A stretch of DNA of 64,000 nucleotides, from contig OX597822.1 of the NCBI GenBank assembly GCA_951406725.2, positions 72,602,001 through 72,666,000 of the forward strand. The letters are read 5' to 3'. The translations under genes and the position numbers were made by a program. Of the stretch, positions 19,390-26,706 are shown piece by piece; positions within the stretch are counted from its first letter, which is position 1, and every line of letters starts with the position of its first letter. The DNA comes from Octopus vulgaris (lineage: Eukaryota). Below the pieces are notes generated by a model that saw only the letters and a program-made list of their open reading frames with translations, did no database searches and was not told the origin of the DNA.

Positions 19390-19573
19390 CTATTGTGGGA
19401 GATACGTTCCAAAACATCCCAAAGAACTAAATAAAATATAAAAGAAATTTGAATTACCTTCCACCCGCATAAACCCTTGATAAACTAAGGATTCTGCGAT
19501 AGAGATTTATATATATTAGCCAGAAAAATATGCGATATTCTTGGTGCACGATAGGTGAAACGTGATATATATA

Positions 19574-20531
19574 TTAGATTTCCCTTGGGGGCTGCCCAGG
19601 TCGGAGCAATCTCAAGATTAATCAGCCGAAATTGCGAAGATGATCCGGTTCTTGACTGATGACTGAGGGCTTCGAATGTCCCGTCCTGTGGTTCTTGTGT
19701 CGTCTTCTAGGTGTTTAACGTTCTTGTCCCAGTTTGTATATATTTTTTACTTTTTACATATATAATGGCGGCTTCGTATCCACACCTCTGTCCTTATACG
19801 TAAGTATATTTTCTCCAACATTGGTACGACTCTTGATCGGTCTTTTTCTCTCTCTTTCTCCTCCTTCCTTATTCCCCTTCTTTCTTTCTTTCTCTCTTCA
19901 TCCGTTCCCCCTCCTACGCTTCTCTACCTCTCATACCTCCACTCCCCTCGACCTGTCTCTTTCTTCTCCTCCCCTGTCCCCCTTCTCTCTCTCCTCATCT
20001 GTCCCCTTCTCCTGTCTTTTGTCCTCACGTGACCAGCTAGCCACTACTGGGCAGCCTTTTCGTATCCAGCAGTCGTTGAAGCAACACGTTTTTGTTTGTT
20101 TCCCGCGGCCATAAGGCACAACGCCATAAGCCAGCCCCAACTCAACTCGTCCTGTCGAAAGACCTTTGTCCTACGTCCTGGTTTTGTTTTTTATCCTTAC
20201 CTTTATTGTTTTTACGTTTTTGTATTCTTATTCGTGCTTTCCTTATTGTTTTCACGTATTTCTGCATTTTTATTCGTGTACATCGTTCGTTTTCCGTCCT
20301 TGTGTTGTATACATTCGAAGCTTTCTTCCAAGGGATCTAATGCGCTTGGCTTAGATTTCCCTTGGGGGCTGCCACGGTCGGAGCAATCTCAAGATTAATC
20401 AGCCGAAATTGCGAAGATGATCCGGTTCTTGACTGATGACTGAGGGCTTCGAATGTCCCGTCCTGTGGTTCTTGTGTCGTCTTCTAGGTGTTTCACGTTC
20501 TTGTCCCAGTTTGTATATATTTTTTACTTTT

Positions 20532-20539
<8 letters not shown>
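19574..20539 (+). mobile_element. Non-autonomous terminally redundant element, 777-nt unit with ~188-bp direct repeats
   Basis: 19574-19762 is nearly identical to 20351-20539; non-coding CT-rich interior; permuted hammerhead core in both repeats; TA flanks. Confidence 0.8.
20311..20456 (+). ncRNA. Candidate permuted hammerhead ribozyme, copy B (predicted cleavage after AUC 20386-20388; partial twin at 19581-19679)
   Basis: ATC 20386-88, GAAA 20405-08, CTGATGA 20433-39. Stem III gcaat/attgc, stem I tcaaga/tcttga, stem II ggctg/cagcc. Extra helices gtcgga/tccggt and acattcgaagc/gcttcgaatgt; hairpin ccaaggga..tcccttgg. Confidence 0.72.
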
Positions 20540-20581
<42 letters not shown>

Positions 20582-20846
20582 AATATTGACGGAGATAAAT
20601 TAATATTAATTTTAATATCAATTTAAAACCAGTAGTCCAGCATTCAACAAATCTGAGGAGTCTGAGAAAATTCAAATATATGTGTATATTGGCAGGGCTG
20701 GCCTGCTAGGTAGCCGGCCAGAATGCTAGAAGAAGATCATCAACGATCAAACTACAAGGGAAATTCTCTAGAGGAAGAATTCAGCGAACACCAGAACCAA
20801 CTTTGGCGGGTAGGACATATGAAAAATTAAATAAAAAACAGACTTA

Positions 20847-20923
20847 AATGTATACCTCGGTTTCGGTCTTAACAAAAAGAATTACTTGCATAATTCAAGT
20901 GTCCGTGACTTCATCAGTACATT
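20847..20923 (-). ncRNA. Type-I hammerhead ribozyme, inverted copy
   Basis: Reverse complement of 21459-21534. Confidence 0.65.
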
Positions 20924-21458
20924 CGGTCTTCGAGATGCAAACTGAAAGTCTAACCCCAGCTCTCTGTGTCAAGACAGACACGTGCTTAGTCTTACTGATT
21001 ACATCGGGAATAAAATTTCAAATATCTTGGCTCTGGCGCGCTAAGAGACTCCTGAAGCGAAGGGCTGCAGTGAATAATTCACTGCGGGTAGTGCTTACAA
21101 CAAGGGAACGTATTTATTTAAATATTTAGCAGGCCAGCCCTGCCAATATACACATATATTTGAATTTTCTCTGACTCCTCAGATTTTTTGAATGCTGGAC
21201 TACTGGTTTTAAATTGATATTAAAATTAATATTAATTTATCTCCCTCAATATTTAAATATTTAAATAAATACGTTCCCTAGTTGTAAGCACTACCCGCAG
21301 TGAATTATTCACTGCAGCCCTTCGCTTCAGGAGTCTCTTAGCGCGCCAGAGCCAAGACATTTGAAATTTTATTCCCGATGTAATCAGTAAGACTAAGCAC
21401 GTGTCTGTCTTGATACAGAGAGCTGGGGTTAGTCTTGCGGTTTGCATCTCGAGGACCG

Positions 21459-21534
21459 AATGTACTGATGAAGTCACGGACACTTGAATTATGCAAGTAA
21501 TTCTTTTGTTAAGACCGAAACCGAGGTATACATT
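21459..21534 (+). ncRNA. Type-I hammerhead ribozyme with extended stem II
   Basis: aatgta-CTGATGA-agtc..[gaatta/taattc hairpin]..gacc-GAAAC CGAG GTA-tacatt; perfect 6-bp stem I; first stem II pair mismatched. Confidence 0.65.
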
Positions 21535-21691
21535 TAAGTCTGTTTTTTATTTAATTTTTCATATGTCCTGCCCGCCAAAGTTGGTTCTGGTGTTCGCTGA
21601 ATTCTTCCTCTAGGGAATTTCCCTTGTAGTTTGATCGTTGATGATCTTCTTCTAGCATTCTGGCCGGCTACCTAGCAGGCCAGCCCTGCCA

Positions 21692-21758
<67 letters not shown>

Positions 21759-25905: not shown

Positions 25906-26480
25906 ATGACCTTGGAAACGAATATGATTATTCATTCGAACAGCGAACGAAATGCAAACAACTTTGGATGCAAGCTGTGTTATAGAACCTTTGCAACTGT
26001 GAGAGGCTTGAAGATACATCAGGGAAAGACTTGTGAGAAGAGGACAGAGCAGTGTGGACAGATCGTAAAACACGTGGCAAATCATCCCCGGACTCAAACC
26101 CCAGCGGATCGATAAATGCTACAGCAGAGACCTCTTCACGTGATGAAACTACAAGTCTTGACACTGGTGCATCGGATAATACTCAGAGGAAACCGAGGGT
26201 TTTGTGGCCTGCTGCTACTGAGAAAGTGAAATATAAAGAGTTTGAAAACAAGGTTTGTCGGGCTCTTTATAAAATGACAGGCTCTACAGTGGAGAAACTG
26301 GGTAAATTATCAAACTCAATATACGATATAGGACACAGCGTGAGACGACTGTTTTTATCGATAGGCTTAACTCATCTTAAAGTCAATACCACCATGACTG
26401 ATATCCAATCTACAGTGGAGAAGGCTAGCCACTGGATTTGGTTAAAAAGAGACGATGAGCGATGGCTAGAAGTATATTGA
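25906..26480 (+). pseudogene. Remnant ORF of HERO/R2-like element (frameshift near 26055, large internal deletion)
   Basis: ORFs 25906-26115 and 26052-26480. Confidence 0.65.
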
Positions 26481-26503
26481 GTTCTTCATAACCAGCAGCT
26501 GAT

Positions 26504-26615
26504 CTAGCAAGCGGGGCCTCATATCAGTGAGGGGGGCCGGTGCGCATTGATGCCGTCGAGAGGTAGGCCCCGAAACGGCGCGCATTCTCTCCTGATGACC
26601 CCATACACTTGCTAG
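26504..26615 (+). ncRNA. Candidate permuted hammerhead ribozyme, copy C (predicted cleavage after GUC 26555-26557)
   Basis: GTC 26555-57, GAAA 26572-75, CTGATGA 26592-98. Stem III tgccgt/acggcg, stem I gagag/ctctc, stem II ggggcc/ggcccc. Extra helices gtgcg/cgcat and gggg/cccc plus ctagcaag/cttgctag; hairpin cctca/tgagg. Confidence 0.75.
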
Positions 26616-26676
26616 CTTCCGGTATACGGAGCTTTTAACTGGTAGCACTTGTATGTGCAAGTTGTTTGCAAGACAT

Positions 26677-26706
<30 letters not shown>

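Follow-up and report, generated by a model that had tools for sequence, protein, structure and literature searches.

The insertion at 19574..20541 of the 64,000-nt stretch of Octopus vulgaris DNA analyzed here (hereafter the window) is best explained, with a probability of about 0.7, as a partial-tandem copy of a non-coding repeat that targets (TA)n DNA, likely a non-autonomous Penelope-like element whose RNA would be cut by a predicted ribozyme with a displaced stem II. The sequences themselves show a hammerhead core with stems I–III and extra helices, and copies that share a fixed 3′ end, vary in their 5′ ends and occur as partial tandems and arrays. A more specific proposal, to which slightly better than even odds are given, is that this ribozyme represents a fourth wiring of the non-circular hammerhead, in which the core is opened between A9 and G10.1, rejoined through a helical junction and braced by a kink-turn; it would be the missing ribozyme of Naiad elements and of thousands of non-coding satellites in the octopus genome, which would cut their RNA in vivo and be copied either from the cut linear RNA, giving 150-nt copies, or from a circle, giving long copies and tandems. 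Judged from sequence, the element appears to be new in resembling a Penelope-derived retrozyme while its hammerhead is neither of type I nor a type-SGC form with an unbroken core.

Non-circular hammerheads are known almost only from environmental RNA, and their block C has been assumed to be unbreakable. If the proposed reading is true, a split-core form present in thousands of animal copies widens hammerhead structure, explains why Naiads seemed to be devoid of a ribozyme and implies that a whole class of animal retrozymes escapes the descriptors in use. At the predicted cut, the step in 5′ ends would also serve as a genomic read-out of whether Penelope-like templates are cut, uncut or circular.

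The insertion and its repeat unit

The insertion is 968 nt long and includes two direct repeats (19574–19764 and 20351–20541) of 191 nt each, which are 98% identical and spaced by 777 nt. This spacing upholds the two predicted cut sites 777 nt apart described in a sequence-only reading of the window. The limits given there (19574..20539) hold at the start, whereas the aligned 3′ end falls at 20541, inside the TA run. The parts of the insertion are:

19574..20541 (+), whole insertion: family A, a non-coding repeat with a 777-nt unit, present as about 1.25 units within a (TA)n tract
19574..19764 (+), 5′ repeat: 5′-truncated upstream unit (pseudo-LTR), carrying ribozyme copy 1
19765..20541 (+), full unit: the single complete 777-nt unit
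20351..20541 (+), 3′ repeat: most of ribozyme copy 2 and the fixed 3′ end of family A
20533..20578 (no strand), (TA)n target tract: 3′ end of the insertion; a short TA run also lies at 19565–19573

Several other loci, and a multimer array as well, have the same head-to-tail junction as 19764/19765. The start of the 5′ copy, at 19574/19575, is 37–38 nt upstream of the predicted cut (37 nt had been proposed), with an edge blurred by the TA flank; no target duplication is resolvable at the TA flanks of the insertion. No credible ORF occurs in the 777-nt unit, the longest (126 aa) being of low complexity. The retrozyme-like nature already suggested for the element is supported by its organization in non-coding head-to-tail units with one hammerhead-like motif each, as in non-LTR retrozymes. 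Family A also has the attributes of non-autonomous Penelope-like elements, namely a fixed 3′ end, 5′ truncation, partial tandems (pLTR) and microsatellite targets: its copies have one fixed terminus in (TA)n or similar microsatellites and scattered 5′ starts.

When the repeat was used as a query against the host genome (2.8 Gb in 227 contigs), 2,465 candidates were obtained, a figure that is not a copy number. The best 40 were scored and showed 97–100% identity, which among best matches marks family A as young. In a set of 30 family-A copies chosen by the 3′ segment alone, the window copy is the only one with two cut sites; the double site is thus regarded as a partial tandem with a random 5′ end and no special design.

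At about 5.69 Mb (locus L153, G000:C7), three or more family-A-like units are arrayed head to tail, flanked on the 5′ side by a family-B copy in inverted orientation; this array is a candidate source of multimeric RNA. Inverted copies of sister families often adjoin family-A copies. Directly after the insertion, the window contains a nested foldback element (20564–21705) with inverted arms of 145–254 nt and 96–99% complementarity. Contigs from 4 of 24 listed runs, which are only presumed to be RNA, cover the element and its sister families; ends, strand and level are unreadable from contigs.

Hammerhead core and displaced stem II

Both repeats hold an intact hammerhead core (CUGAnGA, GAAA and UH), which the search descriptor had required, in the order site, GAAA, CUGAUGA (non-circular S-G-C order, or SGC). 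The bases and order of the permuted core claimed for the two repeats were verified: ATC stands at 19609–19611 and 20386–20388, with CGAAA and CTGATGA downstream in each copy. The strands of each copy follow one another as GCAAUC, UCAAGA, CAGCC-GAAA-UUGC and UCUUGA-CUGAUGA, and a stem I of 6 bp and a stem III of 5 bp are formed across separate blocks. The features of the predicted ribozyme are:

19606..19617 (+), block S: stem III strand, AUC, predicted cut after C19611 (C20388 in copy 2), stem I strand
19623..19635 (+), block G: stem II strand CAGCC, GAAA, stem III strand (+777 in copy 2)
19650..19662 (+), block C: stem I strand and CUGAUGA core (+777 in copy 2), with no stem II strand after it
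19590..19594 (+), displaced stem II strand GGCUG: 21 nt upstream of the cut, pairing with 19623–19627 (20367–20371 in copy 2)
19596..19648 (+), predicted helix P6: 19596–19602 with 19642–19648, joined to stem III via a kink-turn-like loop
20312..20455 (+), outer helix P4 and hairpin P5: P4, 20312–20325 with 20442–20455; P5, 20328–20365
19582..19588 (+), substitute P4 strand: possible partner of 19663–19669 in the truncated 5′ copy

The circular order of the canonical types I, II and III (CUGA-GAAA-UH) is replaced here by UH-GAAA-CUGA. The block order S, G, C is that of type-SGC hammerheads, whereas the uninterrupted block C of that type, with a stem II strand straight after CUGAnGA, is absent, as is the type I hammerhead of non-LTR retrozymes. 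Rfam found no hammerhead and no match at gathering scores in the window; a snoRNA match at E 1.6 (Rfam, 19500–20600) was dismissed as chance, and readings of the same bases as type I and type II were rejected by eye, as stem I does not form. A descriptor of stems I and III in S-G-C order gave 154 matches in 539,327 bases (150 loci, mostly chosen for holding the repeat, plus the window), compared with 0 in the reversed control and 0–2 in ten local shuffles.

Three helices with covariation support surround the core, stem II using the upstream strand. The offset of this strand is −21 in 55 of 63 family-A motifs. An upstream stem II helix of at least 5 bp is present in 150 of 192 distinct motifs (shuffles: mean 20, maximum 32), and within family A a 5-bp upstream partner occurs in 52/63 and a downstream partner of at least 4 bp in 1/63. 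The upstream helix (−6.8 kcal/mol) covaries: three of its five pairs are changed on both sides between families A and D. Across families A–D double-sided changes affect 2 pairs of stem I, 3 of stem II and 3 of stem III, N7 being free to vary, and the pairing counts of stems I and III in this comparison are circular because the descriptor demanded those stems. Since stem II is made with an upstream strand and shows double-sided changes between families, the core would be split, with a predicted opening between A9 and G10.1. In family A, a C follows A9 and faces C11.1.

Additional helices are predicted around the split core. In the loop between P6 and stem III, GA (19604–19605) faces a 3-nt bulge plus GA (19636–19640), an arrangement that we take to match the kink-turn consensus; in family D, P6 pairs in a shifted register only (by eye). 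The strand after CUGAUGA pairs far upstream in P4, beside P5, and both are kept with changes in families B–D. P4 closes the 3′ copy with 14 bp in family A (−19.2 kcal/mol), and P4 and P5 are predicted to bridge A9 and G10.1 in copy 2. The 3′ ribozyme is complete except for a private two-base swap (a mismatch) in P6. The 5′ ribozyme keeps the displaced stem II strand and, as had been remarked, has no counterpart of the outer P4 strand (20312–20325); without the native P4/P5 arms it would need a substitute pairing, and the one put forward earlier, CCCTTGG (19582–19588) with CTGAGGG (19663–19669), can form 7 bp (−7.7 kcal/mol). Because the 5′ ribozyme is truncated and the 3′ one carries a private mismatch, release of a 777-nt RNA from the window locus is considered unlikely.

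The same strand order is found in sister families B, C and D (B and C being ~70–80% identical) and in the more distant families E, F and G. Genome-wide patterns for the sister families gave 35 matches against 0 in the reversed-pattern control and a loose pattern gave 2,688 against 12; related motifs in the genome would accordingly be counted in thousands. The loose pattern set no condition on stem I pairing. In 30 fetched loci, which are not independent because they comprise near-identical family members and overlapping loci, stem I was paired at 146/150 positions (partner shuffles: mean 122, maximum 136) and outer stem III at 76/90 (shuffles: mean 57, maximum 68). The ribozyme of the family is very probably active or recently active. 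Among its distant relatives, family E2 (L244–L273) has an 836-nt unit and is very young (97–99%) and often dimeric to tetrameric.

Copy ends, templates and competing explanations

In all of the 30 family-A copies the 3′ end lies 147–153 nt past the predicted cut, and the 5′ starts fall between −3 and +21 in 10/30 and 13–369 nt upstream of the cut site in 20/30. The latter group bears out the sequence-only reading in that copying proceeds past the cut; the longer copies need the circular or uncut template that it named, or a template jump.

Scorable 5′ ends at 0 to +24 amount to 10/29 in family B and 3/16 in family E, with 0 at −25 to −1 in both; these counts leave out an unscorable family-B locus (L283) and 14 of 30 family-E matches that are inner tandem units. 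When the three families are pooled (75 ends), the first 25 nt past the cut contain 22 ends and the 25 nt preceding it 4 (p = 0.0005), and 2 lie at +25 to +49. The corresponding figures after and before the cut are 9 and 4 for family A alone, 13 and 0 for families B and E alone (45 ends) and 19 and 4 once six inversion-junction ends are removed (69 ends). The excess persists with widths of 10–40 nt, in B and E alone and without inversion junctions (p 0.0002–0.04), the widths having been picked after family A had been seen and the copies being best-scoring matches, neither random nor a census. For this reason, and given the breadth of the peak (0 to +24), the pile-up is regarded as suggestive and indirect evidence of cutting in vivo.

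The mechanism proposed for these copies would begin with the folding of a tandem or read-through transcript, in which the upstream strand makes stem II and P4/P5 place A9 beside G10.1, so that the RNA is cut after AUC. A Penelope-type reverse transcriptase (RT)/endonuclease provided in trans would nick (TA)n DNA, and copying would begin inside the RNA at a short UA-rich patch ~150 nt 3′ of the cut. If the template were a cut linear RNA, the RT would run off near the cut, giving copies of ~150 nt; on a rejoined circle or an uncut tandem RNA it would pass the site and give longer copies, such as the 1.25 units seen here. Circle and uncut RNA look alike in DNA copies because a rejoined site equals the genomic sequence.

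The alternative that survives best accepts the ribozyme as real and assigns the copies to uncut tandem or read-through RNA, or to jumps of the RT between linear RNAs, with no circle and no accumulating 777-nt monomer; it is a possibility of appreciable weight that falls short of even odds. Tandem arrays exist that could supply multimers, and the 777-nt monomer has no special fold, being no better than shuffles (z 0.07). According to the account of the anole Penelope element (PMC11167929), uncut RNA is the main template in vitro, where cleavage is dispensable, 0 RNA-seq reads end at the cut, and internal initiation was shown at a site not homologous to the target. The monomer fold and the dispensable cleavage in the anole system also argue against a classic retrozyme circle. 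On the other hand, the excess of 5′ ends just past the cut in three families suggests that many templates start there, and precise head-to-tail junctions common to loci fit continuous copying better than template jumps.

It is improbable that the motif is a relic without activity, or that it serves to bind protein or to pause the RT, with 5′ ends piling up by stalling. In favor of this view, the position of stem II departs from that in all described hammerheads and Rfam recognizes no hammerhead; against it, the core is retained between families while the stems around it vary on both strands. Stalling fits less well because the strongest helices lie further 3′: the RT would meet P4 (+53 to +66) and stem I (+38 to +43) first, yet the interval from +25 to +49 is nearly free of ends.

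Least tenable, and very improbable, is an ordinary type-SGC fold in which the sequence downstream of CUGAUGA would make stem II (as CUGA with UCAG or as GGCU with AGCC): the window copy can form a 4-bp downstream pairing (−4.5 kcal/mol) and E-type families can pair both upstream and downstream (downstream in 29/32 of E1), but this fold needs core insertions of 2 or 5 nt, a 4-bp partner from 11.1 occurs in 0/39 (family B), 0/14 (C) and 0/24 (D), and the upstream helix is both stronger and covarying, so that a downstream stem II was rejected for families A–D on partner counts.

Relatives of the ribozyme and of the element

The closest known ribozymes are the type-SGC hammerheads (HRIMA-1 and a variant; Eckert et al., 2023; PMC10085705), which as described share with the octopus motif the order site-GAAA-CUGAnGA, an intact core, similar spacing and crossing stems I and III. 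They differ in that their stem II directly follows CUGAUGA(U)G, whereas in the octopus motif the strand for stem II precedes the cut by 21 nt and a different helix is formed by the strand after A9. In that account SGC hammerheads come from metatranscriptomes and none is given from genomes of known organisms, in contrast to the high-copy animal repeat described here. Block C was assumed there to be uninterruptible, and the published descriptors would miss the octopus motifs because they require CUGAUGAG or CUGAUGAUG followed by stem II.

A pseudoknot-containing hammerhead (Zhan et al., 2024; PMC11300833) offers a structural parallel: its crystal structure has a pseudoknot helix in place of helix II in an active hammerhead, indicating that catalysis tolerates the replacement of helix II by a helix made with another strand. 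The fold of that ribozyme is pistol-like, with pairing between a loop and a stem-loop added to helix I, and the account of it that we consulted mentions neither the site-GAAA-CUGA order nor a domain between A9 and G10.1. No description of a scrambled split-core fold in animals was found in the literature searched (subscription papers and bioRxiv supplements lying outside its scope).

Animal non-LTR retrozymes (Cervera and de la Pena, 2020, PMC7229834; Li et al., 2026, 10.64898/2026.07.22.740005), as presented in these sources, likewise consist of non-coding head-to-tail units with one hammerhead per unit, range from monomers to multimers and have a proposed Penelope origin; 777 nt is within the unit range of 51–972 bp given by Li et al. 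(2026). Their hammerheads are of type I, whereas the ribozyme of the octopus element is non-circularly permuted, and they form self-paired circles of 170–400 nt detected by Northern blot, whereas the octopus monomer is poorly folded and known from DNA.

Naiad elements (Craig et al., 2021; PMC8557442) are reported to have (TA)n targets, 5′ truncation, partial tandems and inverted neighbors, and the partial tandems, array and adjacent inverted copies seen here match Penelope-like insertions as described there. Naiads encode an endonuclease and an RT (3.4–4.4 kb), whereas family A encodes nothing. In the same report no Naiad yielded a canonical hammerhead, but partial cores were flagged, among them that of Naiad_Ovul ('HHR_half_core'). 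In its supplement, the 3′ ends of the octopus consensus sequences Naiad_Obim and Naiad_Ovul have by eye the ribozyme wiring of family A, with blocks in identical order, a stem II strand ahead of the cut and the GA/GA loop, the fold being in common and the stem sequences not; three further Naiad consensus passages have the same strand order. The octopus Naiad motif gave 494 matches genome-wide against 0 in the control; among 30 fetched loci, 22 satisfy the descriptor and 2 have Naiad RT fragments within 1.5 kb upstream. Naiads are called long inactive in cephalopods (Craig et al., 2021), and the Naiad copies found here look old while family A is young, which counts against the preferred reading of family A as a non-autonomous Penelope-like element.

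Candidate RT donors are found at L159 and L334–L339, where open frames of 753 aa (Neptune-like, TA-flanked) and ~900 aa (Hydra-like) belong to young autonomous Penelope-like elements that are abundant, the Neptune-like assignment of L159 being a reading of its C-terminal motifs. The scrambled motif occurs in 0/30 loci of young Neptune-like elements and near Hydra-like elements in 1/30, there in a neighboring family-B copy; by eye, no 3′-end sequence common to family A and the Neptune-like, Hydra-like or Naiad loci was found in the loci viewed. The RT beside a family-B copy (L116/L151) was considered as Naiad-like and rejected in favor of Hydra-like because of its C-terminal GIY-YIG and a motif that by eye resembles type I.

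The window contains two further motifs of this kind. At 1590–1700 (+; predicted cut after 1629) there is a decayed E-type copy, located where a similar non-coding repeat ends ahead of a TA run. The second, at 26480–26680 (+; predicted cut after 26557), has the same order and the upstream stem II strand and forms the 3′ tail of a decayed ORF, presumably that of a non-LTR element; this tail seems to be repeated upstream of the head of its element. Going by this motif, the scrambled fold may extend beyond Penelope-like elements.
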